DNA from: Lachnospiraceae bacterium
Lineage (GTDB): Bacteria; Bacillota; Clostridia; Lachnospirales; Lachnospiraceae
Reading direction: 5' to 3'
Assembly (NCBI GenBank): GCA_022792295.1
Contig: JAAWAR010000111.1
Location: 11,447-75,446, forward strand
DNA: 64,000 nt
Below the pieces are notes generated by a model. It was not told where the DNA came from. It made no database searches and saw only the letters and a program-made list of their open reading frames with translations. Shown one piece after another: positions 7,965 to 50,804 of this stretch (the stretch's first letter is position 1; every line of letters starts with the position of its first letter). A program made the translations under genes and the position numbers.

Positions 7965-8793
7965 TTAATCCAGCCTGCAGATCAATACGGACGTGTTCGT
8001 AAACATTCCGTTCCCGTTTTCCGTTTCCAGGGTAATCGAATGAGGTGGGGCAGCCACGGTTACAAATGTGGTTGCGGAAAGCGTGGTCACATCATGGGCC
8101 TGGCGAATAGTTGCCATTGATGTTGTTCCGGGAATCGGGATCTTATTGCTGGCAAGGGACACTCCTACGGAAACCGGTAAAGTGACTGACGCCGCATTGG
8201 TGGCAACAGTGTGATACGAAACCTCATAATGCCCACTTGTCACCAGGGTAAATGTCCTTATGGACGGTGTATAATATATATCTATGCCGTTGTCTATAAG
8301 GTTATCTTTAAGGGCTAACGCAGATTTAGCCGCCGGGGTCTGGGCCGGATCATTGGCAGGCCCGATGGCTCCTGAAATACCCTGGAGACCCTGGGCTCCG
8401 GCCGGACCCTGAATACCTTGGGCTCCCCGTGTCCCGATGGGGCCTGTAGGACCTGTCGCAGTCACCAGGTCAAAGTTCAAAGACCCTCCCGGCACTCCGA
8501 CCGGAAAAAATCCAGTTTGTACGATATAGAGCGCCATTCCAATAGACGAGATCTCCCAGCCGATATTGTTTGTTGGGATCAAAGACTTCTGCCTCACTTA
8601 ATCCCGGCCCCATCGGCCCCTGAGGGCCTCGGCAGCAGCAGGAAAAATTGGGCCTGCAGCACATGCTACTGCCGCAGTCTTGCTGATTCACGCAGTTCTG
8701 AATATTTTCACAATTTACATTTCCTTCACATCCGGGGCTTTCACAGCAATTCGAATTTTTTCCGCACCCGGAAGCCATTGAGTCATAATACAT
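7965..8793 (-). pseudogene. BclA-like collagen/exosporium-type protein split by a frameshift
   Basis: ORF 8470-8793 (Cys-rich N-terminus, GPQGPMGP) and ORF 7965-8597 (GXY repeats plus beta-rich C-terminal domain ending ICRLD) fuse if one base is removed from the A6 run at 8505-8510. Confidence 0.7.
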
Positions 8794-29453: not shown

Positions 29454-29723
29454 TCGTGCTCCTCCTGTTTCATTAGAAATTGATATTTGGAAAAAAAGAG
29501 ATACCGATACCGTAGCATAAGATAGGAGAGTTGTCAAGCGCGTGGGTAGAGTGCTCATAATTGTAATGAAGTCGAAATTCCTCTAATATTATAAGAAATT
29601 ATCTGCTGCATTTTGGCACCCGGCCAAACCGGAGCAGATATTTACTTACAAAAGGAGCCTTCCCGGAATCTCTCTTGCATAAGGAGACTGTGTGGGGCAC
29701 GCAAAGAAGAAACGGAGGAAAAC

Positions 29724-30323
29724 ATGGAGAACAGGATTTACGGGTATATCCGCGTATCAACCAAGGAGCAGAAAGAAGACAGACAGCGGGCGGCCATGAA
29801 GGAGTTTGGCGTGCCTTCCGACTGCGTGTTTATGGACAAGCAGTCCGGCAAGGATTTCAAACGGCCAGGCTACAGGCGGCTGATGCGAATGCTCAAGCCG
29901 TCCGACACGCTGGTAATTAAAAGCATTGACCGGTTGGGCCGGAATTATGAGGAGATCCTGGCACAGTGGAGGATTATCACCAAGGAAAAGCAGGCCTCCG
30001 TCGTGGTATTGGACATGCCGCTTTTGGATACGAGAGAGGGACGGGATTTGACGGGGACATTGATCGCGGACATCGTTTTGCAGCTTCTCTCATATGTTGC
30101 ACAGACAGAACGGGACTTTATCAGACAGAGGCAGGCGGAAGGGATTGCGGCAGCCAAGGCACGCGGAGTACGCTTTGGACGGGAGGCGATGGTACGGCCG
30201 GAGCTTTATGAGAGGCTGTGCGAGGAATGGAAAAGCGGAAGGGTATCGGCGAGGAGAGCGGCCAAGATATTGGGAATTACGCATCGAACATTTTTAAAGT
30301 GGGTGCGGAAGGAGTCGTGGTAA
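29724..30323 (+). CDS. Small serine recombinase (Hin/resolvase-invertase type)
   Basis: GGAGG RBS; YGYIRVST catalytic Ser, SIDRLGR, RQRQAEGIAAAKARGVRFGR, C-terminal HTH SARRAAKILGITHRTF. Confidence 0.95.
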   Translation: MENRIYGYIRVSTKEQKEDRQRAAMKEFGVPSDCVFMDKQSGKDFKRPGYRRLMRMLKPSDTLVIKSIDRLGRNYEEILAQWRIITKEKQASVVVLDMPLLDTREGRDLTGTLIADIVLQLLSYVAQTERDFIRQRQAEGIAAAKARGVRFGREAMVRPELYERLCEEWKSGRVSARRAAKILGITHRTFLKWVRKESW

Positions 30324-30503
30324 ATATTTGATACAGCCGGAAATCATCCGTGTGTGTCCATATAAAAGGAGGGTTAAAAGGAGCCTGTAAACCGAGGAGC
30401 AAGGCCTTTTTGGAATGGGAAATATTTTACATTTTTTAACTTTTTAAACGTGTAAACGGGAAAAATATCTAGGGAACTTTGTATGCCTAGCCTGTAATAA
30501 TTT

Positions 30504-30529
30504 GGATAAAAAAGTACAGTTTGGTATCC
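30504..30529 (+). repeat. Left invertase crossover site (26 bp, hix-like)
   Basis: GGATAAAAAAGT-AC-AGTTTGGTATCC (12+2+12); 30513-30533 is a perfect 21-bp inverted repeat of 30618-30638. Confidence 0.88.
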
Positions 30530-30581
30530 GCCAGAAAAAGGTGCCCTTTTATATACCTTATAGCGCACAAACTACGTAAAT

Positions 30582-30610
30582 ATCATAGCATAATCCATCT
30601 ATGATTGCAA
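30582..30610 (-). promoter_or_regulatory. Invertible sigmaA promoter, currently facing away from tnpB and the glycan cluster (OFF)
   Basis: Minus strand TTGCAA-N17-TATGAT with extended -10 TGn, lying between the two inverted sites. Confidence 0.85.
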
Positions 30611-30621
30611 TACCCCTTGGC

Positions 30622-30647
30622 GGATACCAAACTGTACTCTGGTATCC
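30622..30647 (-). repeat. Right invertase crossover site (26 bp, hix-like)
   Basis: Plus strand GGATACCAAACT-GT-ACTCTGGTATCC; half-sites 10/12 palindromic; core inverted relative to the left site. Confidence 0.88.
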
Positions 30648-30672
30648 ATTCAGGGGTTTTTTGGAGGTACAG

Positions 30673-31863
30673 ATGGAGCGGCGCTATAATTTCCGGATTT
30701 ATCCGAATCCGGCGCAGGAAACGCAGATACAGAAGAATTTTGACTGCGTTCGTTTTGTTTATAATTATTACCTGGCAAAGCGCAGGGAGGCGTACGAGAG
30801 CGGAAGGGGGATTATCGGCTATAACGAGATGTGCCGGGACATGACGCAGCTTAAGCGGACGGCGGGGTATGAGTGGCTTCGCGAGGCGGATCATAATTCC
30901 CTGCAGCGGGCACTGAAACAGCTAGATTTAGCCTTTCAGAAGTTTTTTCGGAATGTAAAGCAGAAGGGCACGGCGCCGGGATTTCCCGTCTTTAAATCGA
31001 AAAAGAGCCTGCGTCAGTCATACACGAGTCCCGCAAGTACGCCGAAACAGTACACAGACAAACGAACGGGAAACGTACGGGAACAAAAATCAAGTGTGGC
31101 GCTGTATGAAAATTCCATTAAGCTTCCGAAGCTTGGCAGGGTAAAATGCCGTGTATCCAAAAAGGCAGAGGGGCGTATTCTCTCCGCGACGGTTTTAAGG
31201 ACGGCTGCGGGGAGATATTTTGTTTCTCTCGTCTTTACGGACTGGGGGCCGGTGCCGTTTTTGCAAACGGGGAAAGCGGCAGGAATGCAGCTTGGCATCC
31301 GAACGCTTGTGACTCTGTCGGACGGGACGGAAATCAAGAATCCCTATTTTTTAAAGAAATCCAGAAAAAAGATCCTGCGCCTGCAAAAGGAGCTGTCGCG
31401 AAAGACAAGCGGCAGCCAAAATTATGAGAAGGCCAGGAAAAGGCTGGCACGGGCATATGAGCATACCCATAACCAGAAGGCGGATATGCTTCACAAGCTG
31501 ACGACGCAGCTTGTGCGGGAATACGATGTGCTTTGTGTGCGTGACGAGCCGTTAAAGAAGATGATAAGAGAGCGTCGGTTTGCAGGACCTCTTTTGGACG
31601 CGGGATGGGGGGCACTTGTAAGCGAGCTGTCTTATAAATGTGGCTGGTATGGAAAAACACTTGTAAAAATTGACCCGCTTTATCCGAGTACAAGGCGCTG
31701 CAGCGTATGCGGCTTTGAGTATATGCCTGTATCAAGGCAAAAGAGGATAATGGAATGGAACTGTCCGAGCTGTCATACGAGGCATAAGCGCGCAGTCAAT
31801 GCGGCAGTCAATCTGTTAAAGGAAGGAATGCGTCTGGCAGAGACCGGCCGGGAGGCGTCCTGA
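30673..31863 (+). CDS. tnpB: Nuclease-dead TnpB (TldR-like RNA-guided DNA-binding protein)
   Basis: GGAGG RBS then MERRYNFRIYPN (IS605 OrfB HTH), IKLPKLG, intact CSVC/CPSC Zn ribbon; RuvC motifs read GMQLG, CVRDE, HKRAVNAA instead of GxDLG, xEDL, HDRDxNAA. Confidence 0.9.
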   Translation: MERRYNFRIYPNPAQETQIQKNFDCVRFVYNYYLAKRREAYESGRGIIGYNEMCRDMTQLKRTAGYEWLREADHNSLQRALKQLDLAFQKFFRNVKQKGTAPGFPVFKSKKSLRQSYTSPASTPKQYTDKRTGNVREQKSSVALYENSIKLPKLGRVKCRVSKKAEGRILSATVLRTAAGRYFVSLVFTDWGPVPFLQTGKAAGMQLGIRTLVTLSDGTEIKNPYFLKKSRKKILRLQKELSRKTSGSQNYEKARKRLARAYEHTHNQKADMLHKLTTQLVREYDVLCVRDEPLKKMIRERRFAGPLLDAGWGALVSELSYKCGWYGKTLVKIDPLYPSTRRCSVCGFEYMPVSRQKRIMEWNCPSCHTRHKRAVNAAVNLLKEGMRLAETGREAS

Positions 31864-31882
31864 TAGAGAAAGAATGAAAAAA

Positions 31883-32009
31883 GCGGTACGGCCGGGCAGG
31901 CCGGAACCAAAACGCCTGTGGAGAAAGTGTGCAGATACAGTAAAAAAGCGTTCAGGGAAGCAGGAATCCTGGACTTACGGGAGTGCCAAAATCCATATGA
32001 TAATAAATG
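31883..32009 (+). ncRNA. Putative omegaRNA/gRNA scaffold (about 31883-31989) plus guide (about 31990-32009)
   Basis: Immediately 3' of tnpB: cggcc-GGGCA-ggccg hairpin, aacgcctgtggag...gaagcaggaatcc, terminal hairpin tcctg/cggga, then gTGCCaa; loop GGCA is complementary to TGCC (pseudoknot). Confidence 0.7.
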
Positions 32010-32047
32010 CGGCTGGAACACCATTTCAGACCGAAAGGCGGACAGAG

Positions 32048-34567
32048 ATGGAGAGATATAGGAAAAAGGATGTATTGCAGAAAGTGGCAATATTAATAGA
32101 GGCGAATGAGGCGACCGCCGGCGGGAAGGCAGATACTGACTTAGAGGAGTCGGTCAATCAGTTAATACAATGCCAGGATACCGCTGTCCAGATTGGAACG
32201 TATCTGGAGGCAATGGGGGAAGAATGTGCTTTTCTGGTCGGGCTTCTTGAAGATTATTGTGAAAATATTTACCAGATGAGCCTAAGCCTTAACGATGCAA
32301 ACCGCCGCCGGAAGCTTGTCAAAAAGATCAGGAGACAGCTTGCACAAGTAAAAAGCGGTATTGAACTTACCATGCCGGCCGACCGGAGAGAAGTCGTATT
32401 TCTTCCATATAAGGCGAGTATGTGGGATTCATTAGAAAGCGCATGGAAAGCGCTCGATGCAGATGCGAATACGGACGCCTATGTCATCCCGATTCCCTAT
32501 TATGACAAGAATCCGGATGGCAGCTTCGGACAGGAACATTATGAAGGAGATCTGTATCCCGCCAGTGTCCCGATTACGAGGTATGATGCATACAAGATTG
32601 AGGAGCGCAGGCCGGATGCAATTTTTATACATAATCCGTATGATAACGGCAATTTTGTCACAAGCGTGCATCCGTTTTTCTATTCAAAGAACCTGAAGCA
32701 GTATACGGATGAATTGATTTATATCCCTTATTTTATTTTAGATGAAATAGACTCGGAGGATGAAAAAACAGTAGAAGTGATGAAACATTTCTGCATGGTG
32801 CCGGGGGTTTTTAACGCGGACAAAGTCATCGTACAGTCAGAAAATATAAAACGATTTTATATAAAGGCGCTTCTCAAAGCCGGGGATAGTCACAGTCCAG
32901 AGGTAAAAAGGTATTGGGAAAATAAGATCCTTGGGCTGGGATCGCCCAAAATTGACAAGGTATTGCATACAAAAAAAGAGGACCTGGAAATCCCGGAAGA
33001 ATGGGTAAAGATCATAGAAAAACCAGACAGAACCTGGAAAAAAATTATTTTCTATAATACAAGTGTCGGAGCCCTGTTAGAGCACAGGGAACGGATGATC
33101 GGCAAAATAGAGAATGTACTGCGGATCTTTAAAAGCGTGCAGGACGATGTGGCCTTACTTTGGAGGCCGCATCCTTTGACGGAGAGCACGCTTAAATCCA
33201 TGCATCCGACCCTACTTAAAAAATATGAAAGGATTGTAGAAGTTTATAAAAAGGAAAACTGGGGAATCTATGACGACACGGCGGACATGGACAGGGCCAT
33301 AGTGTTGAGCGACGCCTATTACGGGGATAACAGCAGTGTGTTGCATCTGTATAAATTAAGGAGAAAGCCTGTTTTTTTACAGAATCCGTCTATCATAGAT
33401 GAGCTGGCAGATGGCAGAACCCACAGGACGGATCCCTGTCTTCATTTTGAAAACCTGTACGACGACGGGGAATGCTTCTGGTTTACGGAGGATCGGTTTA
33501 ACGCGCTTTTTAGGATGGATAAGGACACTTGGGAAGCGGAATACATCGGCCGGTTTCCCAACGAAAAGGATACGGGGATCCGGCTTTATGCGGAAATTAT
33601 AGAGCATGGGAATAAATTGTATTTTACACCGCTTTATGCAGACGAGATCGGCGTATACGATAAAGGGAACGGGGCCTTTTCCAAAATTTCGTTTGCAGAA
33701 TTGGAGATCGGCTTTATAGAGGGCTCCGGAAGGTCGGCAAACTTTTATTCGGCGCATTTGATTGACGACTGCATGTATTTTATGCCGCACGAGAGAAATG
33801 CCGTGCTGAAGTATGATTTAAAAAACGGTGAAGTACAGGCCATATACAGCTGGGGCAGAGCGATCACGGAGAGATATGAGCTATCGGCTCCCCGGCTGGC
33901 GTTTCAAAGTATTTATGCAAACGGCTGCATTTTTGCTCCCATATCAGGCGGCAACCTTTTAGCAGTCCTTGACATAAAAACGGAAACGACAGAAATTTTG
34001 GAGATAGGCAGCAAGGAAAATACATATTTTGATGTCTGCTTATGGAAGAACCGATTGATTCTGGCACCGCTGCAGGGAAAGGAAATCATCAGTCTGCGGC
34101 TGCCGGATATGCAAACGGAGAAACTTTTTCTGGAAGAATCCAATCCCTATCAATTTTTTTCGATTATACAATGCCATGACAGGCTGTATATGTTCCCCTA
34201 TCAGTATAAGGAGATATTGGAGATTACCGTAAATGAGGAAGGGCGTATGACCTGCGGCCCCTGTAAAGTATGGAACGATACACAAAAGATGGGCTACAGG
34301 CATCCGACAGACAGCCGATACTTAAGTGTAGCCGTGTATTCCGGCCGACTGTATGCGTATGACAGCTTTGAAAAAAAGCTGATTCGTTTTACGCCGAAAA
34401 CCGGGGAATTAAGAAAAGAGGCAGTCAAAATTTGTATCAGCGCTCCTCATGGAAGGGACGTAAGGGAGGCTTTAAAGAAAGCGTATTTCAAGGCATTCGA
34501 GGAGGCTCCAATCGTGTGGGAGGCCGGCTGGAGAACCCTTGGAAGCTTTTTGGAGCTTATGACTTAG
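32048..34567 (+). CDS. CDP-glycerol glycerophosphotransferase-like (GT-B) protein with C-terminal beta-propeller-like region
   Basis: VVFLPYKASMWDSLES, IHNPYD, LGSPKID, LWRPHP, DAYYGDNSS; start moved to ATG 32048 (GAAAGG RBS) because the track's longer N-terminus overlaps the omegaRNA. Confidence 0.65.
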   Translation: MERYRKKDVLQKVAILIEANEATAGGKADTDLEESVNQLIQCQDTAVQIGTYLEAMGEECAFLVGLLEDYCENIYQMSLSLNDANRRRKLVKKIRRQLAQVKSGIELTMPADRREVVFLPYKASMWDSLESAWKALDADANTDAYVIPIPYYDKNPDGSFGQEHYEGDLYPASVPITRYDAYKIEERRPDAIFIHNPYDNGNFVTSVHPFFYSKNLKQYTDELIYIPYFILDEIDSEDEKTVEVMKHFCMVPGVFNADKVIVQSENIKRFYIKALLKAGDSHSPEVKRYWENKILGLGSPKIDKVLHTKKEDLEIPEEWVKIIEKPDRTWKKIIFYNTSVGALLEHRERMIGKIENVLRIFKSVQDDVALLWRPHPLTESTLKSMHPTLLKKYERIVEVYKKENWGIYDDTADMDRAIVLSDAYYGDNSSVLHLYKLRRKPVFLQNPSIIDELADGRTHRTDPCLHFENLYDDGECFWFTEDRFNALFRMDKDTWEAEYIGRFPNEKDTGIRLYAEIIEHGNKLYFTPLYADEIGVYDKGNGAFSKISFAELEIGFIEGSGRSANFYSAHLIDDCMYFMPHERNAVLKYDLKNGEVQAIYSWGRAITERYELSAPRLAFQSIYANGCIFAPISGGNLLAVLDIKTETTEILEIGSKENTYFDVCLWKNRLILAPLQGKEIISLRLPDMQTEKLFLEESNPYQFFSIIQCHDRLYMFPYQYKEILEITVNEEGRMTCGPCKVWNDTQKMGYRHPTDSRYLSVAVYSGRLYAYDSFEKKLIRFTPKTGELRKEAVKICISAPHGRDVREALKKAYFKAFEEAPIVWEAGWRTLGSFLELMT

Positions 34568-34593
34568 GAAAAGGAAAGGATTGGACGAGATAT

Positions 34594-35700
34594 ATGGCAA
34601 ATATAGATCAGCTGGAAAAAGAAATCAAAACACCGCTTCCCGGTGCGCCTGCAAGAGAGGAAGCCAGCACATATTATGTAGAGATTTTGTCGGAATGCAA
34701 TCTGAAATGTGTGATGTGCGGGTTTGGAAGCCGGGAGATATTTGAGAGAAAACGCGGGAAAATGGATGTTGCGCTGTTTGGGAAAATTGTAGATGAAATA
34801 GCAAAAAGAAGCCCGCATGCCACAGTCGCTCCCTACCATCACTGTGAACCGCTGCTTCATCCACAACTTTCAGAGATGGTTAAAATAATAAAGTCGCATA
34901 ATCTGTTTTGTGAGGTGTCTACAAACCTGAATGTTGCAGGGGGGCTAAAGGAACTATTGGAGGCAGGAGTAGATTCGCTTGACATTTCAGTCTCCGGCTT
35001 TTATCAGGAAACCTACGAAAAAAATCATGTTGGCGGAGACATCGAAGAAGTAAAGCGGAATTTAAAGCTTCTGCATGATTTGATAAAGCAGATGAAAACA
35101 GGCCCGCAGATTACCGTCTTTTATCATATGTATACGGATAATTTGGGAGAAGACTTTGAACGGATGAAAGAATATGTGGAGAGCCTGGGCTTTTCCTTTA
35201 GCCCTAACTGGTCGCGCTCCATATGTACGGAAATGTCACTGAAATATATAAGAGAGACCGGCTATTCCCGGTATCATGGAGAGACTCTTAAATGGTTTGA
35301 CGACATGCCTCCTCTAACAGATGCATATAAAAGCGGGATCGAGAGAATGATCTATCTCCCGCAGGATTATCTGGAAGGGAAATGGGGAGAGACCAGGCTT
35401 GACGAATGTCCGATGAATGGCAGGCTCATTAATATTCGATGGAACGGAAAACTTTCCTTATGCAGCTGTACGTTTGACGACAGGCTGTCTGTCTATGAAT
35501 ATCTGACAACTCCGATCGAACAACTGTGGGAAGCAAGGCGCAGCCATCCGGTCTGCAGAGAGTGCCTGGCAAATAATTATGCATTGTATATGAACTATTT
35601 TGATATGGATTACATAGACAAAATTGCAAGAGCCAGGCTTTCACCGGATTTGGCGTCAAACAGAAGATTTTTTGGAGATAATGGAGTGGCAGAGCTGTGA
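34594..35700 (+). CDS. Radical SAM protein with SPASM/twitch-like C-terminus
   Basis: CNLKCVMC (CxxxCxxC), EPLLHP, STN, C-terminal C...C...CREC. Confidence 0.9.
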   Translation: MANIDQLEKEIKTPLPGAPAREEASTYYVEILSECNLKCVMCGFGSREIFERKRGKMDVALFGKIVDEIAKRSPHATVAPYHHCEPLLHPQLSEMVKIIKSHNLFCEVSTNLNVAGGLKELLEAGVDSLDISVSGFYQETYEKNHVGGDIEEVKRNLKLLHDLIKQMKTGPQITVFYHMYTDNLGEDFERMKEYVESLGFSFSPNWSRSICTEMSLKYIRETGYSRYHGETLKWFDDMPPLTDAYKSGIERMIYLPQDYLEGKWGETRLDECPMNGRLINIRWNGKLSLCSCTFDDRLSVYEYLTTPIEQLWEARRSHPVCRECLANNYALYMNYFDMDYIDKIARARLSPDLASNRRFFGDNGVAEL

Positions 35701-37304
35701 GGAAATGTGAAAGATGGCCGGAGGAGAATGGCATAAAATTTTCCGTTTTGATCCCGACGAGAGACAGACTGGATCTATTAAAAACGGCTGTGGCCAGTGT
35801 ACAGAACCAAACATATGAGAATTGGGAACTGGTTATCGTGGATAATTGCAGCGAGGAGGACGTGGGCGGCTATGCGGCCTCTCTTGCAGACAGCCGGATT
35901 GTTTTTTATAGGCAGTCGGAAGCGGTGAGCGTTACGAAAAACTGGAATACGGCGAACGGCCTGGCGTCGGGGGATTACAGGATTATGCTGGGAGACGACG
36001 ACGCGCTGCTGCCTAAGGCGCTGGAAATCCTTGCAGAACGGATTTCGCGCCACGGACATCCGGAGATCGTAAGCTTTATGGCATATGAGTATTTGCAGCC
36101 GCATGTCGATCCCCAAAACAGGGAGGGAAATGTAGCGTTAAGCGTCCCGTTTCTTTTGGATGACAATACGGAAGAAATGTATCTGTCCATGGACTGGAGA
36201 AGAAGGAGCATCGAAGCCTGCTTTTCCTTTGAGAAGGTACTTGGGTACAATATGCAGTTTTACTGCTATAGCAGAAAACTGGTGCAGCGTCTGGAGCGCT
36301 ATGGCGCCTTTTATGAGCCGCCTTATCCGGATTATTATACGACGAGCATGGCGATGCTTCTGGCAGAAACGTTTTTATACATTCCCGAGGTTATCACGGT
36401 AATCGGAGTGACTCCGAAATCCTATGGCTGTTATTACAGGAACAACAACGAAAAGGAGGGCATGAAGTTCCACAAAGAGGAGAACTTCCGCTCTTTTGCG
36501 CCGCTGTCCGTGAGAGAAATGTTATGCAGTGTAGATGAAATGGATACGGCGGCATTTGCGACGTTTGCGTTGGCGGCAAAAAGGCTGAAGGGGCCGTATC
36601 CGAGCCTAAAGGGATATTATAAAGCAGTGCTTAAAAGAGAGGCTCTGTATCGGACCGTAGAGGAGCTTCGTTTTCTGACAGACCAGGAAATGGCGGCTCA
36701 CATAACGGAAGCGGAAAAGAGGGAGCTGTATGCCTATGCACAAGAACTTAAAAATACGAGGAAAGGCGCTCCGGCAGCCAATCCAGAAAAGCCGATTTGC
36801 TTTGCATCGTTAAACGGCCTTCTAAAAAACGTGGAGGGGGTCGAAAAGGCACTGCTTGAGCGCAGTGACAGGCAGTATGGAGACATTGACGAATGGCTTA
36901 AAGCAGAGGGGCTGGAGATAATAACCGCTAATTATGCGGGAAGAAGCATACGAGTGTGGGGCGCATATCCGAGAGGAATATACCTGAAACAGAAATTGCG
37001 AAAAGCCGGATTTTTGGTGAATGGGTGTATAGACCGAATGGCGCTCGAGAAAAATTTTGCAGAAAAAACCTTTGCAGAGAACACGGTCCTATCTCCCAAA
37101 CAGGCCCTTAGCAGAAACAGAGAAGAATATATTGTGATTCCTCTGCTGAGCCGGCACGCAGAGATACTCGAATGGCTGAAGCAAGGGGAGTACGAACCGG
37201 AGAAGGATTTTTTGTATATGGGCGTGTCCGGCGGGAAACCAGAGGGAGAGATGAATGGAAAGGCTTTGCATTTTACAAGTATACCCACAGGGGAGAGGGA
37301 TTGA
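35697..37304 (+). CDS. Glycosyltransferase family 2
   Basis: FSVLIPTRDR, QTYENWELVIVDNCS, LGDDD. Confidence 0.9.
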   Translation: MRKCERWPEENGIKFSVLIPTRDRLDLLKTAVASVQNQTYENWELVIVDNCSEEDVGGYAASLADSRIVFYRQSEAVSVTKNWNTANGLASGDYRIMLGDDDALLPKALEILAERISRHGHPEIVSFMAYEYLQPHVDPQNREGNVALSVPFLLDDNTEEMYLSMDWRRRSIEACFSFEKVLGYNMQFYCYSRKLVQRLERYGAFYEPPYPDYYTTSMAMLLAETFLYIPEVITVIGVTPKSYGCYYRNNNEKEGMKFHKEENFRSFAPLSVREMLCSVDEMDTAAFATFALAAKRLKGPYPSLKGYYKAVLKREALYRTVEELRFLTDQEMAAHITEAEKRELYAYAQELKNTRKGAPAANPEKPICFASLNGLLKNVEGVEKALLERSDRQYGDIDEWLKAEGLEIITANYAGRSIRVWGAYPRGIYLKQKLRKAGFLVNGCIDRMALEKNFAEKTFAENTVLSPKQALSRNREEYIVIPLLSRHAEILEWLKQGEYEPEKDFLYMGVSGGKPEGEMNGKALHFTSIPTGERD

Positions 37305-39216: not shown

Positions 39217-39246
39217 AACATGCATAGTTGTCTGGGAGAATGAAAC

Positions 39247-42590: not shown

Positions 42591-44419
42591 GAAATAATCT
42601 GGCGATCTATGCTACCTATGATAAAAACGGAAAAATTGACGACTATATTCTTTACTGTCTGCATGAACTGAGGAAGGTGGCAGATGATATAGCGGTCGTA
42701 AGCAATGCAAAACTTCCCCGAAAGGAGAAGGATAAGCTTTCCATGGTTCGCTATCTGTATGAACGGGAGGATACCGGATATGATGCGGGCGGATTCGCGT
42801 ACGCACTTGACAGGCTGCGGGGAGAAGGCCGGCTGGAAACGTATGATGCGGTTCTGTTTATGAATGATTCCGTATTCGGACCGTTTTATCCGTTTCAGGA
42901 GATGTTTGAGACGATGGAAAAAAGAGAGGACTTGGATTTTTGGGGAATCACCAAAAGAGGAGTCTCAGACTTTGACGGAGGCGATGCGGTCTATCCGGAA
43001 CATATCCAGCTGTATTTTTATGTGGTGCGAAAGAGGATGCTGCAAAGCGCCGATTTTACAGAGTATTGGACGACGCTCCCCCAAAAGCTGACGGATTTTA
43101 GGAGTGCGATTCTAAAGTACGAGTTTTTGTTTACAAAATATTTTGCAGACCGGGGCTTTCGATGGGATGTTTATTGCAAAACGGACGGATATGTGACAGA
43201 GAATCCTCACTTAAATATAAGCCCGTACCATTACTGCAGTTATGAGCTTGTAAAAGAGGCAAGATGCCCTCTGCTGAAAAGAAGGCTCTTTACGGGAGAC
43301 TTTGTGGAAGGAAGATTCAGCGACCGGTCGGATTTAAGGAAAGCCGTGTCTTACCTGGCGGATAATACGGCTTATGACATGGATCTGATATGGTCGCACA
43401 TCCTGCGGACTTATCCGCTGGGAGCCGTGATGGAGAGCATGCAGATGTACGAGCTGTTAGACACGCCTGCCGGCGCCTCTTTGCCGCAGCGCCTTCCGGT
43501 TCGGGTAATCGATCTGTTCGGGAACGTACTGCAAAATGCGGGTCTGGCTGTAAACGGCTTTTTTCCTGCCGAATATACACTGTTTATAGCCATAGAGGAA
43601 AACGGCACAATCCCCAGGGCATTGCTTGATGCACAGAAACACTGTATTCTTCAGAATTTAGTCAACGATGAAGCCTATCTTTTGGGCGTTTGCGAGCTGT
43701 TTGCAGGAAATCCCAGACTGGGTATGCTGATTCCGCCTGCGAATGTGTTCGGGAAGCTGAGCGGTTCGCTTGAAAAAAGATGGAAAAGGGAAGATCTCGC
43801 GGTAAAAATTCGGGATGCCTATCATTTGACCGTTCCGTTTGGCACATGTGCGCCCACGCATGATTTTTATGCGTTCTGGTGCAGAAGCAGTGTGCTTGAC
43901 GCCCCTCTTTTGGAAGCTTTAAAGGCAGACCGAACGGGGACCATGATGCAGATGATGCCGTTATTTGCCCAACAAAAGGGCTATTATACGGAGGTATTGG
44001 TAGGCAGAGCGTATGTGGTGGGCCTGCTGGCCAATATGCAGCGCACGATGTATGAGTTTTTTCACATGCAGGGATATGCATTGGCAGAGGATAAAGACAT
44101 AGAGGAGCTGAAAGAGGAGGCCTACAAAAGGCAGATTGCCGGATTTATTGGGAAGAAGGACAAAGTGTATGTCTACGGAGCCGGTCAGCTTGCATGCAGG
44201 GTGATCCGCATCCTGGAGGGAATGAGAAAGCCAAGCGGCATTGTCGTCAGCGACAAAAACGGAAATGCAGAAACCATATGCGGATATCCGGTGAAAGGAA
44301 TCGAGGAAGCAAATCTGCAGGGCTGCATCCTAATCCTTGCAGTCGGAGAAAAAAATAACACGGCTGTGGAGGAAAGGCTTAAGAAACTAGGAATCACGGA
44401 CTATCTGACGCTTGTGTAG
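42587..44419 (+). CDS. Rhamnan synthesis F (RgpF) family protein
   Basis: GYDAGGF, MNDSVFGP, DFWGIT, HIQLYF, CPLLKRR. Confidence 0.85.
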   Translation: MRNNLAIYATYDKNGKIDDYILYCLHELRKVADDIAVVSNAKLPRKEKDKLSMVRYLYEREDTGYDAGGFAYALDRLRGEGRLETYDAVLFMNDSVFGPFYPFQEMFETMEKREDLDFWGITKRGVSDFDGGDAVYPEHIQLYFYVVRKRMLQSADFTEYWTTLPQKLTDFRSAILKYEFLFTKYFADRGFRWDVYCKTDGYVTENPHLNISPYHYCSYELVKEARCPLLKRRLFTGDFVEGRFSDRSDLRKAVSYLADNTAYDMDLIWSHILRTYPLGAVMESMQMYELLDTPAGASLPQRLPVRVIDLFGNVLQNAGLAVNGFFPAEYTLFIAIEENGTIPRALLDAQKHCILQNLVNDEAYLLGVCELFAGNPRLGMLIPPANVFGKLSGSLEKRWKREDLAVKIRDAYHLTVPFGTCAPTHDFYAFWCRSSVLDAPLLEALKADRTGTMMQMMPLFAQQKGYYTEVLVGRAYVVGLLANMQRTMYEFFHMQGYALAEDKDIEELKEEAYKRQIAGFIGKKDKVYVYGAGQLACRVIRILEGMRKPSGIVVSDKNGNAETICGYPVKGIEEANLQGCILILAVGEKNNTAVEERLKKLGITDYLTLV

Positions 44420-44453
44420 GGCGGATTGACGAGAGCATGAAGGGGAACGGATT

Positions 44454-44987
44454 ATGGTTTTTAACAAATTAAAAATTGAAGGTGCCTTTTTGATCTGCCG
44501 TCAGCCCAATCAGGATGAACGCGGATATTTTTCAAGACTCTATTGTGAAAACGAGTTTCACGAAGCCGGGATCCGAATGGATCTCAGGCAGATGAATCTG
44601 TGTGAAAACAGAGAAAAAGGGACGCTGCGGGGGCTGCACTTTCAGAAGGGAGAGTATGCGGAGGATAAAGTGGTTTCGTGTACGCGGGGGTGCATTTACG
44701 ATGTGTGTGTAGATGTAAGGCCTGACTCGCCGACGTATCAAAGCTATTGCGCCTATGAGCTGTCGGAGGAGAATGGAAGGATGCTCTATATCCCAAAGGG
44801 CTGCGCGCACGGTTACGTCACACTGACAGAAAACTGTCAGCTTTTGTACCTGATGTCTCAGTTTTATGCCCCCGGCCATGACGGGGGATACCGGTATGAC
44901 GATCCGGCGTTCCAGATAGACTGGCCGGTAAAGACGGGGCTGATTCTTTCAAAAAAGGACAGGGAGTTGCCGTGGATCGGCAGCTGA
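44454..44987 (+). CDS. rfbC: NDP-4-keto-6-deoxyhexose 3,5-epimerase (RmlC/RfbC family)
   Basis: DERGYF, GTLRGLHFQ, DVRPDSPTY, IPKGCAHGY, IDWP. Confidence 0.92.
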   Translation: MVFNKLKIEGAFLICRQPNQDERGYFSRLYCENEFHEAGIRMDLRQMNLCENREKGTLRGLHFQKGEYAEDKVVSCTRGCIYDVCVDVRPDSPTYQSYCAYELSEENGRMLYIPKGCAHGYVTLTENCQLLYLMSQFYAPGHDGGYRYDDPAFQIDWPVKTGLILSKKDRELPWIGS

Positions 44988-45027
44988 AAAATAATAAGAA
45001 AATAAAAAAGGTGAGGAATCAAACAGT

Positions 45028-46260
45028 ATGGACAGAAAGCAATGCCGGTTTTGCGGCAAAGAGTTAAAACATACCATGGTGGATCTGGGGCTGTCTCCCA
45101 TATCCAACGAATATGTGACAAAGGAAAACGTGGATTTGGGGCAGTATTATTATCCGCTGCATGTGATGGTATGCGAGGAGTGTCTGCTTGCACAGGCGAT
45201 GGAATATAAAGCGCCGGAACAGATATTCACGAATTACAAATATTTCAGTTCTTATTCAAAAAGCTGGCTGGAGCACTGTAAAAGATATGTAGACAGGATC
45301 GTTGACAGACTTTCTCTGGGCAGGGAGAGCCTGGTCTATGAGATAGCCTGCAATGACGGATACCTGCTTCAATATTTTAAGCCCTATGGGATACCGGTTT
45401 TTGGAATCGAGCCTGCCGAAAATGTCGCAGAGGAGACGAGAAAAAAAGGGATCGACGTAGCCGTAGAATTCTGGGGAGAACAAACGGCGGTGCAAATTGC
45501 AGGAGAACATGGCAGAGCGGATCTGATTATCGGGAATAATGTGCTTGCCCATGTTCCGGACATCAATGGCTTTGTGGAGGGGCTTCGTATCGCCCTGAAG
45601 GAGACAGGCACCATCACGATGGAGTTCCCGCATTTGCTGAGGCTTATAGAACTCAATCAGTTTGATACGATTTATCAGGAGCATTTTTCTTACCTCTCTC
45701 TGCTGACTGTCCGCAGAATTTTCCAAGCGCACGGACTGAAGATCTATGATGTGGAGGAGTTAGCGACACACGGAGGTTCTCTGCGGATTTATGCGGCACA
45801 TACACAAAACGCCGCCTGTGAGGTGTCCGAGAACGTAAGCCGGGTGATCCAGGATGAAAAAGAGTATGGCTTTGAGCACATGGAGACGTACGAGGACTTT
45901 GCAAAAAAAGTAGAAGCAATCAAACGGGATAGCTGTAAGCTCCTAATCCGTCTGAAAGAGGAAGGGAAAAAAATAGCCGCGTTTGGGGCGGCTGCCAAGG
46001 GGAACACCTTTTTAAATTACTGCGGCATAGGCAGAGAATACATTGATTTTGTGGCAGACTCGAGCATCCCCAAGCAGGGCTTATACCTACCGGGGACAAG
46101 AATCCCGATCGTAAGCCCGGAAAGGATACGGGAGGAAAAGCCGGATTATATCGTTTTGCTTGCCTGGAATCTGCGGGACGAGTTTTCGGAGCTGCTTGCC
46201 TATACGCGCGAATGGGGCTGTAAGCTGATCACATTTATTCCCCGGACGGAAGTATTTTGA
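45028..46260 (+). CDS. NDP-hexose C-methyltransferase (Zn-binding, class I SAM)
   Basis: CRFC...CEEC, EIACNDGYLL, NNVLAHVPD, FDTIYQEH, THGGSLR, GAAAKGNT. Confidence 0.9.
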   Translation: MDRKQCRFCGKELKHTMVDLGLSPISNEYVTKENVDLGQYYYPLHVMVCEECLLAQAMEYKAPEQIFTNYKYFSSYSKSWLEHCKRYVDRIVDRLSLGRESLVYEIACNDGYLLQYFKPYGIPVFGIEPAENVAEETRKKGIDVAVEFWGEQTAVQIAGEHGRADLIIGNNVLAHVPDINGFVEGLRIALKETGTITMEFPHLLRLIELNQFDTIYQEHFSYLSLLTVRRIFQAHGLKIYDVEELATHGGSLRIYAAHTQNAACEVSENVSRVIQDEKEYGFEHMETYEDFAKKVEAIKRDSCKLLIRLKEEGKKIAAFGAAAKGNTFLNYCGIGREYIDFVADSSIPKQGLYLPGTRIPIVSPERIREEKPDYIVLLAWNLRDEFSELLAYTREWGCKLITFIPRTEVF

Positions 46261-47201
46261 TGAAAAAGGTATTTATGACAGGCGCCACAGGTTTCATCGG
46301 AATCCATCTGCTGCGGGAAATGCGAAAAAGAGGAACGGAAGTCTGGGCATTGTGCAGAGAGAGCAGCAGGGAGTATGAAGCTGTAAAAAAAATAGCGGGC
46401 GTACATATTGTCGGCTGCGGTCTGGAAGACGTACAGACCGTTTTAAAGCTGTGTCGAGAGAGGGAATTTGATGCTTTTTACCATTTGGCATGGAACGGTG
46501 CCTCCGGGCCTCTTAGGAAGGAATACGGCGTACAGCTGCAGAATGTCAAGTGGACCTGTGATTGTGTCAAGGCGGCAAAGTTTCTGCAGTGCAAAAAAAT
46601 AATCGTCACGGGGACTGTCTGTGAAAACCAGTGCAGTGCGATTGACGGCCTGGAAGAATTTGTGGGAGCCTCCTATTATTTATTTGCCAAAAGGTATGCG
46701 CACAGGCTGGCAAGAGAAATCAGCAAAGAGCTGGATATGCCTCTCGTATGGTGCCAGTTTTACCATCCGATCGGTGTATTTAACAAAAAGGAACAGATTA
46801 TAGCGGATACCATACAAAAGCTTCTGCATCAGGAAAGTCTCCGATTTGGACCGGCAAACGGGCTGTTTGATGTGATTGACGTAAGGGACTTGGCCTGCGC
46901 CTTATATAAAATGGGGGAAACGGCGCTTAAAAACGACACGTATTTCATCGGGAGCGGCAGTCCCAGAAGACTGAAGGAATACTTAGAAGATATAAAGGAG
47001 ATTTTGGATCCTTTTGCCGACATGCAGTATGGGTCGATAAAAACGGCAGACCTTCCGATGGAACGGGCCTGGCTGGACCCTTCCGCTTTTCAGGAGGAAA
47101 CAGGCTTTATCCCGTCAATCTCTTTTTCGGAGAGTGTGGAAGAAATGCGGACATGGCTGGAGAATGAAAAAAGATATGATTTTGAAAAATGGTTCTTTTG
47201 A
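46260..47201 (+). CDS. NAD-dependent epimerase/reductase (extended SDR)
   Basis: TGATGFIG, YHLAW, YLFAK (YxxxK). Confidence 0.88.
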   Translation: MKKVFMTGATGFIGIHLLREMRKRGTEVWALCRESSREYEAVKKIAGVHIVGCGLEDVQTVLKLCREREFDAFYHLAWNGASGPLRKEYGVQLQNVKWTCDCVKAAKFLQCKKIIVTGTVCENQCSAIDGLEEFVGASYYLFAKRYAHRLAREISKELDMPLVWCQFYHPIGVFNKKEQIIADTIQKLLHQESLRFGPANGLFDVIDVRDLACALYKMGETALKNDTYFIGSGSPRRLKEYLEDIKEILDPFADMQYGSIKTADLPMERAWLDPSAFQEETGFIPSISFSESVEEMRTWLENEKRYDFEKWFF

Positions 47202-48282
47202 GGAAATGGCGCGGCAGATCGAACAGAAGAAACAACAGATCGTCATTTTTGGCGCAGGCATGATAGGGAGGGTTACAACCCTGGCCATATTAAAAAAACA
47301 CAATCTGGAAAACAGGGTGTCTTTTTATGTGGACAATGACCCCGATAAGGCAGGCAATACGAAAGGTGGATACGAGGTCCGGCCGGTGGAACGGCTGAAG
47401 GAGGTAAACGGGGACAGAACCGTTATTCTTTTGGCCGTAAGCAGATTTGCAGACAGCCTGGCGCAGCTTGAGAATTTTAAAAATCTGGAGCATACGGCCT
47501 GTTTCCTGATTCCGATGATGTGTATCACCAATTTCAGGCCGTCCGGGGAAAATCTGATTCAAAAGGACAGCAAAGTCCGCAGGATTCCTAAAATCATCCA
47601 TTATATGTGGCTGGGAGGCCAAAAGATTCCCGCTGTCCTTTTGCGGTGTATGGAAAGCTGGAAGAAATACTGCCCGGACTATGAAATACGCTGCTGGGAT
47701 GAGTCCAATTATGATATAAATAAGAATTCGTATATGAGGGAGGCATACAGGCGCGGCATGTACGGGTTTGTGCCGGATTATGCAAGATTAGATATTCTGT
47801 ATACATATGGAGGGATCTATCTTGACACGGATGTCGAGCTCATAAAGGGGTTAGACGACATGCTGTACCAGGAGGCGTTTTGCTGCGTGGAAAAGTGGCA
47901 GAATATAAATTTCGGCGGCGGCAGCGGCGCCGTAAAGGGCAGCAGGGCGATCGGGGAGTTATTAAAGACGAGAGCGGAGTTGGCCTTTATAGATGAAAAG
48001 GGCAATATAAATAAAAATACCTGTGGATACTACGATACGCTGGCGCTGCAGAAATTTGGCTATAAAATCTGCGGCGGACCGCAGAAAATCCTTGACATGA
48101 ATATTTATCCATATGAAGTGTTCCATCCATATGATTACATGTCAAAAAGAACGGCCCGGTCGGTCAATACACATGGGATTCATCACTTTAACGGCGGCTG
48201 GCTGGACGAATCAATGAGGCGTGCAAACCAGAAGACGGCAGAGGAATTCGAGGAAATATACCAGAGGACTGTTACTTTGTAA
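47164..48282 (+). CDS. GT32 DxD glycosyltransferase with N-terminal Rossmann-like domain
   Basis: IPKIIHYMWLGG, DYARLDILYTYGGIYLDTD; start uncertain (47164 or 47176). Confidence 0.88.
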   Translation: MKKDMILKNGSFEEMARQIEQKKQQIVIFGAGMIGRVTTLAILKKHNLENRVSFYVDNDPDKAGNTKGGYEVRPVERLKEVNGDRTVILLAVSRFADSLAQLENFKNLEHTACFLIPMMCITNFRPSGENLIQKDSKVRRIPKIIHYMWLGGQKIPAVLLRCMESWKKYCPDYEIRCWDESNYDINKNSYMREAYRRGMYGFVPDYARLDILYTYGGIYLDTDVELIKGLDDMLYQEAFCCVEKWQNINFGGGSGAVKGSRAIGELLKTRAELAFIDEKGNINKNTCGYYDTLALQKFGYKICGGPQKILDMNIYPYEVFHPYDYMSKRTARSVNTHGIHHFNGGWLDESMRRANQKTAEEFEEIYQRTVTL

Positions 48283-48291
48283 ATGAAATGC

Positions 48292-48320
48292 TTGTATAAA
48301 TTGGTTGAATCCTGTACAAT
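48292..48320 (+). promoter_or_regulatory. Internal sigmaA-like promoter for the CDP-alditol module
   Basis: TTGTAT-N17-TACAAT in the gap between GT32 and the epimerase. Confidence 0.5.
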
Positions 48321-48345
48321 GGAGATACGTTCTGGAGGAAAGGGT

Positions 48346-49008
48346 ATGCAAATTGAACTGAATGCGTCAATGATGTGCGCGGATTATGGACATCTGGAGC
48401 AGGAGGTAAGAAATCTGGAGCAGGGCGGCATTGATTCCTTCCACATCGACATCATGGATGGCCGGTATGTCCCTAACTTTGCCATGTCGTTAAACGATCT
48501 GCGCTACATTGCAGGCGCGACAAAAAAGCCGCTCGATATTCATCTGATGATCGAGCATCCAAGCAATAACATCGGTTTGTTTATAAAAAGCCTGCGAAAG
48601 GGGGATACGGTTTATATCCATCCGGAGGCTGAATACCATCCGTCCACGACGCTGCAGAGCATAATCAACGCGGGAATCACTCCGGGGATTGCCATCACTC
48701 CGGGTACCTCGGTGGAGACGGTGATGGAGATGTTACGCATCGTAAAAAAGGTTTTGGTGATGTCTGTCAACCCCGGGAATGCAGGGCAGATGTATCTGCC
48801 GTATGTCGGAAAGAAAATTATTAAGCTGCTTGCCATGAAAGAGGATATGGATTTTGAAATCTACTGGGACGGAGCGTGCAGTGCGGATAAGATTCTGGAA
48901 TTTGCCCCCAAGGGCGTGAGAGGATTCGTGCTGGGGACGACGCTGCTTTTTGGGAAAGGAAAGCCGTATGGAGAGATTTTGCAGAATATACGGGAAATGA
49001 GGTTTTAG
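48346..49008 (+). CDS. Ribulose/allulose-phosphate 3-epimerase family protein
   Basis: SMMCAD, FHIDIMDG..VPN, DIHLM, VMSVNPG, WDG. Confidence 0.88.
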   Translation: MQIELNASMMCADYGHLEQEVRNLEQGGIDSFHIDIMDGRYVPNFAMSLNDLRYIAGATKKPLDIHLMIEHPSNNIGLFIKSLRKGDTVYIHPEAEYHPSTTLQSIINAGITPGIAITPGTSVETVMEMLRIVKKVLVMSVNPGNAGQMYLPYVGKKIIKLLAMKEDMDFEIYWDGACSADKILEFAPKGVRGFVLGTTLLFGKGKPYGEILQNIREMRF

Positions 49009-49013
49009 ACGGT

Positions 49014-49724
49014 ATGAATATAGGAATCCTGCTGGCAGGCGGGACAGGCACAAGGCTCGGGACAGAGATTCCGAAGCAATATATAAAAGCAGGCGGACGG
49101 GCGGTGATGACGTATTCGCTCGAATGCCTGTGCCGTCATGAGAAGATTGACGCGGTGCAGATCGTGGCAGAGCCCGCCTGGCGGGCGCAGATTACAGAAT
49201 GGCTTTTAAAGTATGACCCCGGGAGAAAATTCCGGGGCTTTTGTGCACCCGGGCAGACACGCCAGCTTTCCGTTTTTTATGCGCTAAAGGAGATAAAGAA
49301 CTATGCGGAGGCAGAGGACTGTGTGCTGATTCATGACGCCGCACGGCCGCTTCTTTCAGCCGAACAGGTCACAGAATGTCTGGCTGCGGTACGAGAGGGG
49401 CACGACGGCGCCCTTCCGGTGCTGCCTATGAAGGATACCGTGTACCAAAGCCGTGACAAAAAAACAGTCTCTTGTCTTCTGGAACGGAAGGAAATATTTG
49501 CAGGGCAGGCGCCGGAGGCGTTTCGCTTCGGGAAATACTACGAGGCAAATAGAAGGCTTTTCCCAGAGCAAATCTACGGGATCAACGGCTCAACGGAGCC
49601 CGCGGTTCTGGCGGGAATGGACATTTTGATGATACCGGGAGACGAGGAAAATTTTAAGATTACGACAAAGGCGGATCTGGACCGGTTCTGCCGGATTCTG
49701 CAGGAAAGGGACGGGATACTATAA
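49014..49724 (+). CDS. IspD/TarI-family cytidylyltransferase
   Basis: LLAGGTGTRLG..PKQY, IHDAARP, NFKITT. Confidence 0.92.
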   Translation: MNIGILLAGGTGTRLGTEIPKQYIKAGGRAVMTYSLECLCRHEKIDAVQIVAEPAWRAQITEWLLKYDPGRKFRGFCAPGQTRQLSVFYALKEIKNYAEAEDCVLIHDAARPLLSAEQVTECLAAVREGHDGALPVLPMKDTVYQSRDKKTVSCLLERKEIFAGQAPEAFRFGKYYEANRRLFPEQIYGINGSTEPAVLAGMDILMIPGDEENFKITTKADLDRFCRILQERDGIL

Positions 49725-50804
49725 ATGAACGCATGGGTGCTGCATGGGATCGGGGATATACGGCTTGAGACGGTAAAAAAACCAGAGCCGCAGCCGGGAG
49801 AGGTATTGGTCGCCGTAAAGGCGGCGGGGATCTGTGGCTCAGACATTCCGCGGATCTATCGGACGGGAGCGCATAAGGCCCCGCTGATTCCCGGACATGA
49901 ATTTTCCGGCGTGGTGGAGGAGCTTGGCAAAGGCGTGTCAAAGGAATGGCTGGGAAAGCGGGCCGGCGTATTTCCGCTCATTCCGTGCGGGGCGTGTTCT
50001 CCTTGTAAGAAGCAGCAGTACGAGCTTTGCAGAAGCTATGATTATCTGGGCTCGCGCAGAGACGGGGGCTTTGCGGAGTATGTAACAGTCCCGGTGTGGA
50101 ATCTGATAAAACTGCCGGACGGGGTGTTATACGAGGAAGCCGCGATGCTGGAGCCGATGGCAGTGGCGGCGCATGCGATGCGCAGGGTAAACTTCCTCAA
50201 GGAGCAGAGTGTGGCAGTCTGCGGCCTTGGGACAATCGGGCTGCTGCTTTTGCTGTTTCTCTTGGAAGCGGAGGAGACGGCGGGCTTTGGCGGTTTAGGC
50301 AATGGCAAGAGGATTTTCGCAATCGGGAATAAAGATCTGCAAAAGGAGACGGCCGTACGGCTGGGACTTTCAGAGGAAAATTTCTGCGACAGCCGGATAA
50401 TGGACGTGGAAAGCTGGCTGCTTGAAAGGACATGCGGGGCCGGCGCAGACGTGTTTTTTGAGTGCGTGGGGAAAAATGAAACGGTAAAGCAGGCGGTTGG
50501 CGCTGCCGCCTCGTCGGGACAGGTGGTTCTGGTAGGAAATCCGTATTCGGATATGAAGCTGGAAAAGGATGTGTATTGGAAAATTTTGCGGAATCAGCTC
50601 ACCGTGACCGGCACATGGAATTCGTCGTTTTGGCACAGTCCGGATGACGACTGGCAGTATGCGCTGGAGCGGATTTCGAAAAAGCGGATTCAGCCTGCCG
50701 CATTGCTTACGCACAGCCTGCACATGGAACAGCTGGAACACGGACTGAAGATCATGCGGGATAAGACGGAGGCATTTGTGAAGGTGATGGGGCGGTTTGC
50801 GTAG
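49725..50804 (+). CDS. Zn-dependent alditol-phosphate dehydrogenase (TarJ/GatD-like)
   Basis: GICGSD, GHEFSG, CGACSPC..C, GLGTIG. Confidence 0.88.
   Translation: MNAWVLHGIGDIRLETVKKPEPQPGEVLVAVKAAGICGSDIPRIYRTGAHKAPLIPGHEFSGVVEELGKGVSKEWLGKRAGVFPLIPCGACSPCKKQQYELCRSYDYLGSRRDGGFAEYVTVPVWNLIKLPDGVLYEEAAMLEPMAVAAHAMRRVNFLKEQSVAVCGLGTIGLLLLLFLLEAEETAGFGGLGNGKRIFAIGNKDLQKETAVRLGLSEENFCDSRIMDVESWLLERTCGAGADVFFECVGKNETVKQAVGAAASSGQVVLVGNPYSDMKLEKDVYWKILRNQLTVTGTWNSSFWHSPDDDWQYALERISKKRIQPAALLTHSLHMEQLEHGLKIMRDKTEAFVKVMGRFA

Follow-up and report, generated by a model that had tools for sequence, protein, structure and literature searches.

A nuclease-dead TnpB with a putative guide RNA heads a glycan operon behind an invertible promoter and may silence flagellin-linked glycan genes in gut Lachnospiraceae

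What does a TnpB-like protein do when it has lost its nuclease residues and stands between a DNA invertase and a long run of glycan genes, and is it still directed by an RNA? This question is raised by a 64,000-nucleotide (nt) stretch of DNA from a Lachnospiraceae bacterium (GCA_022792295.1, contig JAAWAR010000111.1, positions 11,447 to 75,446; hereafter the window), which lies on contig C31 of a metagenome-assembled genome (MAG) of 2.8 Mb that is 81% complete and has mouse-gut Lachnospiraceae as its nearest relatives. A recombinase gene, an inverton, the tnpB-like gene and the glycan genes follow one another there, all on the plus strand and 3′ of a divergent ilvB-ilvN pair. The comparisons described below suggest that the protein is a domesticated, TldR-like TnpB with a guide RNA, which lies behind a real invertible promoter heading a glycan operon and is predicted to bind DNA and repress transcription. 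With moderate confidence, we favor a model in which alternative glycan genes, probably those of flagellin, are silenced across loci by an RNA-guided mechanism that is itself phase-variable, with the TldR of the cassette as the repressor.

The tnpB-like gene (30673-31863, plus strand) starts at the ATG at 30673 and encodes a protein of 396 amino acids (aa) with three Pfam TnpB domains and retained zinc-finger cysteines. Alignment with ISDra2 TnpB (PDB 8EXA/8H1J, E = 6e-75, residues 4-387) shows that the RuvC triad is replaced at all three positions (D191 to Q, E278 to R and D361 to A, corresponding to Q206, R290 and A374 of the window protein), and the initial annotation was right to describe a full-length TnpB without the three acidic residues. 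Among homologues sampled from 5.8 billion proteins, those with at least 49% identity all carry H/Q/R/K, R/K and A/G/S/T at these positions, and D/E/D is found only below that level. The same boundary was seen in the 94 loci that were fetched, where 21 of 21 at 49% identity or more were dead (20 with all three positions called) and 73 of 73 at 47% or less had D/E/D. This distribution indicates that the dead triad is a trait of a deep nuclease-dead clade and not a private lesion.

The ratio of nonsynonymous to synonymous substitution rates (dN/dS) of the dead TnpB was 0.13 against an 82% identical orthologue and 0.11-0.16 against a 69% identical paralogue, the former being equal to that of the adjacent TagF-like gene (0.13), and the 396-aa frame was intact in all assemblies. 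These values indicate that the protein evolves under purifying selection; the neutral drift and frequent frameshifts that, according to the initial annotation, would have spoken against a function were not seen. The gene is single copy in the window's genome, the order ilvB-recombinase-tldR-TagF is the same in two species, and no transposase was found among the neighboring open reading frames (ORFs) scanned, no search having been aimed at a left end. In its full-length TnpB homology, inactivated triad, lost transposon context and retained RNA scaffold, the protein corresponds to a TldR.

The omegaRNA of active relatives consists of a stem-loop, ACGCCTGTGGAG, a variable stem and GAAGCAGGAA-hairpin-GGGAGGTTCA(N), and in multi-copy active elements the copy-to-copy homology stops one base after GTTCA, which gives the right-end junction. 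The dead cassettes have the same layout, terminating in GGGAGTGCCAA. A covariance model (R1), built from 14 active omegaRNAs only, gave one full-length match in the 64-kb window, at 31859-31989 on the plus strand (29.5 bits, E ~2e-3), where it overlaps the final bases of tldR, and a single match at the equivalent place in seven other dead-clade loci (eight including the window), so that the omegaRNA-like scaffold noted from the letters alone is confirmed. In a joint alignment, which was fitted to the covariance model and hence is biased towards structure, 90.8% of the cells pair, versus 31-43% when the partners are slid. In the scaffold, 13 of the 17 pairs are changed on both sides, that is, in a compensatory manner, and the long-range helix is GAAC/GUUC in active elements versus GGCA/UGCC in dead ones. 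Because the scaffold ends at 31989 and the junction was mapped from active right ends, the guide, AATCCATATGATAATAA, starts at 31990 and was taken as 31990-32006 on the plus strand. An earlier placement at 31989 with a mismatch at position 1 was moved by the right-end mapping, and the mismatch was gone. An Rfam scan of 29000-33000 found no known RNA family, only two sub-threshold chance matches, and a 22-nt complementarity between 29598-29619 and 31983-32004 was attributed to chance since it is not conserved in the sister species.

The guide has a second site in the same genome. The 17 nt that begin precisely at 31990 recur without change at G000:C129:6128-6144, on another contig and on the coding strand, with no similarity on either side. 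This site is inside a 448-aa TagF-like gene, the fourth of an operon with the order flagellin, GT2, GT2, TagF-like, NKWYS/PglD-like and sulfate-activation genes. The gene that follows the guide in the window (32048-34567, plus strand, 839 aa, weak Pfam Glyphos_transf match) is a paralogue of this target and 48% identical to it (48-52% with target paralogues over the N-terminal ~445 aa), and the two are the only TagF-like paralogues in the assembly. At the homologous site of the window's own gene (32628-32647, plus strand; a TACAT flank and AATCCGTATGATAAC), CCG stands in place of CCA at guide position 6, both coding for proline, and further mismatches follow on the 3′ side.

Comparison with the sister species extends this pattern. 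Its 4.0-Mb genome has a second dead tnpB (L019), 69% identical, with the same inverted repeat (IR) type, spacing and promoter and with other glycan genes 3′ of it, beside the cassette represented by L018; the IR motif occurs at these two cassettes only, and the orthologous recombinase is encoded at one of them. The genome has exactly four TagF-like paralogues, and each is found either behind a dead tnpB or behind a flagellin gene with an exact guide match. The L018 guide (A variant) matches 15 contiguous bases in each of two operons, L105 and L106, which both begin with flagellin and GT2 genes and in which the L019 guide (G variant) matches 5. The L019 guide matches 17 contiguous bases in the L018 cassette's own gene, where the L018 guide matches 5, and in the L019 cassette's own gene both guides match 2. 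Matches to the guide are therefore 17/17 at C129 and 15-17 at three sites of the sister genome, and the own downstream gene is matched by each guide over 2-5 contiguous bases only. The sole A/G difference between the two sister guides is a target variant present in the same genome. All of the matches are on the coding strand, and the guide RNA would accordingly be complementary to the template strand. A third species of the genus lacks a dead tnpB, and no TagF-like paralogue was detected in it either.

The recombinase gene (29724-30323, plus strand) encodes 199 aa with the catalytic domain of resolvases (Pfam PF00239, E = 7e-31) at the N terminus and a helix-turn-helix (HTH) domain (HTH_28) at the C terminus, in agreement with its earlier description as a Hin-type serine recombinase. 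Its orthologue in the sister genome, beside one of the two cassettes only, is 91% identical (dN/dS 0.05). Between this gene and tldR are two inverted repeats, at 30503-30533 (left) and 30618-30648 (right), with arms of 31 nt, not 26 bp as first proposed, which are 90% complementary with 21 nt perfect, and which constitute the sole such pair in the window's genome. A promoter scan of the 84-bp core (30534-30617) found only one good promoter, a sigma-70-type extended -10 promoter on the minus strand (TTGCAA-N17-TGnTATGAT, 30610..30582; -35 at 30610-30605 and -10 at 30587-30582), so the switch as assembled points away from tnpB (OFF).

The IR pair and its 84-nt spacing are conserved in L004/L018 and L019 of the sister species, and the promoter is conserved in three cassettes. 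When L004, from a MAG of the sister species, was compared with L018, from its isolate genome, the flanks were identical and the 84-bp core was exactly reverse-complemented, the promoter of L018 facing the dead tnpB (ON). The switch thus flips in nature in the sister species. A small serine recombinase with these two domains, inverted repeats bounding a segment next to its gene and, in the sister species only, both orientations in nature are the features of a Hin/Gin-type switch.

Several side observations were made around the switch. In the sister species, a 134-aa ORF with a Spo0A_C DNA-binding domain (E = 8e-25) is located just left of it (L004:9213-9617 and L018:7214-7594, both minus strand), on the strand that the promoter faces when OFF, and no remnant of this ORF was found at 30324-30502 of the window; the inverton of the sister species may toggle between this regulator and the dead-TnpB operon. 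Just 5′ of the recombinase gene, a 29-nt imperfect hairpin (29589-29651, 79% complementary, 5-nt loop) overlaps promoter-like hexamers and could be an operator or attenuator for the recombinase. A second Hin-like recombinase, 60-62% identical to that of the window, is encoded elsewhere in both genomes (G000:C102:11045-11602 and G001:C1:807507-808073). One Logan short-read contig of the window's species (L010) starts exactly at 30618, the inner edge of the right IR, which is expected if the orientations were mixed in the sample but proves nothing. A terminator-like hairpin at 30637-30655 was discarded because it is not conserved in the relative.

These observations suggest the following model. 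The Hin-type recombinase would flip the 84-bp promoter between the 31-nt repeats, and in the ON orientation one transcript would carry the dead TnpB, the guide RNA, the TagF-like phosphotransferase and 13 more glycan genes. The guide RNA expressed in this way would direct the TldR to AATCCATATGATAATAA on the coding strand, next to the 5′ TACAT inside the C129 TagF-like gene, where the bound complex would block elongation by RNA polymerase with a polar effect on the downstream decoration genes. The default glycan genes 3′ of flagellin would be silenced and replaced by the cassette's own paralogue, which the synonymous mismatch at guide position 6 would protect, and the cassette would then modify flagellin. 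Judging from the guide matches, the default flagellar glycan genes are probably silenced whenever the window's cassette is turned on. In the sister species the same logic would give a hierarchy, in which the L019 guide acts on the L018 cassette gene and the L018 guide acts on both flagellin operons.

Published work on both halves of the model agrees with it. TldRs repress by steric block, including downstream of the transcription start site and within fliC ORFs (PMC13622181; PMC13418256 section 11). In Clostridioides difficile, formation of the type A flagellin glycan requires the TagF-like CD0244, which is encoded in a fliC-adjacent cluster and presumably takes the phospho-moiety that it transfers from a CDP-activated donor (PMC10714395).

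Several points weigh against this interpretation. The window's own species was OFF in all four assemblies (the window, L007, L008 and L009), and a search of JGI metagenomes for the ON-orientation junction of this species gave 0 matches. If transcription were blocked at the third or fourth gene, flagellin and the GT2 genes upstream of the block would still be expressed, and not all TldR homologues block elongation equally well (PMC10705468, Extended Data Fig. 8). Because the genome is incomplete (81%), it may contain more cassettes or targets than were seen. The putative target-adjacent motif (TAM), TACAT (TTCAT at one site), differs from the TTGAT/TTTAT TAMs of active relatives and resembles them only in part. 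The TagF module is all that the cassette shares with the flagellin operons, so that flagellin as the substrate of the cassette is what we infer, and its product may decorate flagellin or another surface polymer, and we rejected, for the same reason, the view of the entire cassette as a paralogue of the flagellin island. Finally, a sliding control found four other 17-mers with second-site matches in 2.5 kb, two of them low-complexity, and the C129 match alone is therefore worth only p ~2e-3. Its weight comes from the context, because it starts at the independently mapped junction, is on the coding strand and falls in a paralogue of the adjacent gene within a flagellin operon.

The main target of the protein might instead be the cassette itself, in which case it would damp its own operon or stabilize one orientation of the switch. 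AGCAT followed by AATCC(A/G)T, that is, a 7-nt seed with a CAT flank, is found at the same promoter position between -35 and -10 in all three cassettes, and its A/G varies in step with the guide of the cassette concerned; any given 7-mer has a chance of ~0.01 of occurring in the core, and TldRs of the oppF type use guides of 9-11 nt with a seed of ~6 nt (PMC10705468). The near-cognate site in the gene just downstream points in the same direction. Against this, the match breaks after 7 contiguous bases, the flank is AGCAT versus the TACAT of perfect sites, the covariation is a single event, and the perfect sites of 15-17 nt elsewhere would bind far better. We consider autoregulation as the main role unlikely, although it can coexist with cross-silencing as an added or alternative role. 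Of the three functions first suggested for the protein, tuning of its own promoter is hence weakly supported by the seed in the promoter spacer, whereas biasing of inversion as an accessory factor found no support. Silencing of competing glycan loci fits best, given the paralogue matches elsewhere and the mismatch at the own locus, with the amendment that the targets are inside TagF-like genes of flagellin-linked operons and not at promoters of generic surface-glycan loci.

A different origin of the guide was also considered. The guide of an IS200/IS605 element is, by the way the element is built, whatever DNA lies next to its right end (PMC10705468), and the guide of the window could be the leftover flank of an ancestral IS605-type element in a TagF-like gene, in which case the protein would be kept for some other reason and the match would have no present regulatory role. 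The depth of the association with TagF bears on this relic explanation. Divergent members of the dead clade come from termite-gut metagenomes, Gracilibacteraceae, Family XIII and a Chitinispirillales bin, and a TagF-like gene directly adjoins the dead tnpB in 5 of the 7 other dead-clade lineages and is ~3 kb away in 2 of the 7, usually followed by a cytidylyltransferase, GT2s and methyltransferases. The constant presence of a TagF-like gene beside or near the dead tnpB is as a relic would predict, and so is the resemblance of guides across much of the clade to the NPYD-coding site. On the other side, the identity, which begins precisely at the junction, extends over no more than 15-17 nt and is not flanked by further similarity, the match is still perfect in spite of the age of the clade (~50% protein divergence), the A/G difference of the sister guides corresponds to an existing target variant, and both protein and scaffold are under constraint. 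Furthermore, a Gracilibacteraceae MAG has a different guide, which fits two TagF-like paralogues at 14 of 15 bases in another motif of the gene; this change of site within one gene family speaks for a guide that selection has retargeted rather than for a frozen insertion scar. Reading this match as covariation at the same codon was dropped, as protein-guided extraction placed the site ~10 codons downstream. On balance, an insertion-site relic appears quite improbable.

That the gene is the decaying remnant of an IS605-family element upstream of the operon, with an inverton that serves the glycan genes only, would agree with its public label as a transposase accessory protein and with the lack of a visible tnpA or left end, but is already contradicted by the selection and conservation data, namely the intact frame under constraint, the same triad replacement across a deep TagF-associated clade and the compensatory changes of the scaffold, and is very hard to credit.

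Cross-silencing of TagF-like paralogues thus remains our preferred reading within this genus, and the searches of more distant genomes add the following. The Family XIII MAG has no second site for its guide, the guides of L012, L013, L016 and L034 have no match at up to 2 mismatches within their own contigs, and a family-wide search found no close homologue in 300 other genera of the family. In three metagenome contexts, an XRE-type regulator and a small ORF stand before the module in place of an invertase. In L012, L013, L014 and L016 (~7230-8000), which are termite-gut and other metagenome members of the clade, these are a divergent XRE-type HTH gene and a conserved ORF of 64-69 aa without Pfam match; this pair may represent different control of the same module. 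We are evenly divided on the fullest form of the reading, namely that these proteins form a deep, previously undescribed TldR clade dedicated to glycan genes, with a TagF-like partner, a guide against its paralogues, Hin-flipped promoters in this genus, an RNA-guided dominance hierarchy of at least two cassettes choosing the flagellar glycan, and self-sparing by synonymous mismatches in the seed region.

The closest published systems are the csrA-associated TldRs of Oscillibacter and Flavonifractor, for which Hin, an inverton, intragenic targets and multi-locus cross-targeting have been described (Nat Microbiol 2026; PMC13418256); the view that no TldR is known with an invertase is out of date. 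As in the window, a chromosomal dead TnpB with a guide RNA has a Hin-family recombinase immediately upstream and a small promoter inversion between them, the targets are in ORFs of a neighbor-gene paralogue, several cross-targeting loci occur per genome, and the theme is flagellar. The F. plautii ATCC 29863 reference locus (G002:C194, L137) consists of hin, inverton, TldR, CsrA and flagellin. Its hin is 61% identical to the window recombinase, but the TldRs are only 29% identical (BLASTP; 33% in the genome search), versus 47% between the window protein and active TnpBs, which indicates that the same invertase family serves two different dead-TnpB clades. The window protein does not belong to the csrA-associated clade by sequence, and its locus has neither csrA nor fliC as neighbors, carrying a TagF-like gene and 13 glycan genes instead. 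Its predicted target is a glycosylation gene 3′ of flagellin and not fliC, the promoter looks sigma-70-type and not FliA-dependent, and the IR sequences differ. A different dead clade, the glycan cargo and the glycosylation-gene target are therefore what is new here compared with the published csrA type.

Three further details were noted in this comparison. The F. plautii csrA-linked TldR shares the E-to-R replacement with the window's clade (CVRGD vs CVRDE) in spite of the 29% identity. Past its flagellin gene, the F. plautii locus encodes an APS-kinase/methyltransferase fusion, and a sulfated flagellin modification may be common to the csrA-linked and window-type systems. The scaffold of the second sister cassette has a 39-nt insertion in the variable stem (L019:9250-9290), which recalls the expanded, RNase III-cleaved stem-loop of the Oscillibacter TldR guide RNA (PMC13418256).

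The fliC_P-associated TldR of Enterobacteriaceae prophages (PMC10705468; PMC13418256) resembles the window's in that tldR is beside a gene whose paralogue elsewhere is targeted and in that a guide of ~16 nt directly follows a scaffold of ~100 nt. That system is phage-borne, apparently constitutive and directed at the fliC promoter, whereas the window cassette is chromosomal and phase-variable and has a predicted intragenic target. In the oppF-associated type of Enterococcus, the dead TnpB likewise heads or abuts an operon and blocks elongation of a paralogous gene downstream of the transcription start site, but the guide is 9-11 nt, the context is an ABC transporter and there is no invertase (PMC13622181). 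Active IS200/IS605 TnpB-omegaRNA systems (ISDra2 and the Firmicutes loci L024-L097) share with the window 47% identical proteins, the domain order, the omegaRNA architecture and the junction; unlike the window, they keep D/E/D, are multi-copy with mapped ends, have TTGAT/TTTAT TAMs and carry guides unrelated to the neighboring genes. Three TldR associations (fliC, oppF and csrA) have been described, and according to those authors most clades still lack a known role. No mention of a glycosylation or polysaccharide association was found in the TldR papers searched.

The capsule of Bacteroides fragilis is controlled by the Mpi serine invertase, which acts on several invertible promoters of one IR type, and by trans-locus inhibition through UpxY and UpxZ, where UpxZ is a protein inhibitor of antitermination by the NusG-like UpxY. 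Each glycan locus thus opens with a regulator that inhibits the others, giving a hierarchy; the likeness to the window is one of analogy only, with no homology.

The glycan genes themselves number 14 when the TagF-like gene is counted, not 13 as first stated, and all are co-oriented at 32048-50804. The 13 that follow the TagF-like gene (34516-50804, plus strand) were identified by Pfam, and their order is the same in the sister species. In addition to the TagF-like gene, the cargo comprises a radical SAM gene, a GT2, four RgpF, RmlC, a C-methyltransferase, an epimerase and a DXD-glycosyltransferase, as well as a ribulose-P 3-epimerase, an IspD/TarI-like cytidylyltransferase and a zinc alcohol dehydrogenase (TarJ-like). 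The last three genes (48283-50804) look, from Pfam matches and general knowledge, like a CDP-ribitol supply module for the TagF-like transferase: the epimerase, cytidylyltransferase and dehydrogenase would presumably make CDP-ribitol, a plausible donor for it. An ORF call of 31874-34567 for the TagF-like gene was rejected as 58 codons too long at the 5′ end, masking the scaffold and guide; the gene callers of other assemblies place the start at the position equivalent to 32048, which leaves a spacer of 184 nt after tldR. Glycan genes directly 3′ of and co-oriented with flagellin, as in a flagellin-glycosylation island, are present in C129, L105 and L106 and absent from the window's own cassette, whose contig has no flagellin gene.

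If the proposed reading is true, these loci would represent a fourth TldR clade, with glycan biosynthesis genes as cargo and a target that the genome sequence itself allows to be predicted, and one invertase family would have been taken up by two unrelated dead-TnpB clades. To spare the own gene by one synonymous base would be a simple design rule for compact programmable repressors. Because the sister species is available as a cultured mouse-gut isolate, Lachnospiraceae bacterium C57_80_CC_BP (MGBC000176), with two cassettes, one captured ON, the hierarchy is directly testable. The system would be an RNA-guided counterpart of the Bacteroides Mpi/UpxZ hierarchy and would extend RNA-guided flagellar remodeling from flagellin to the glycan coat. 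It would also suggest that a stochastic DNA switch, combined with RNA-guided silencing of the alternative genes, lets gut commensals change their flagellar glycan coat, which is visible to host immunity and to flagellotropic phages.

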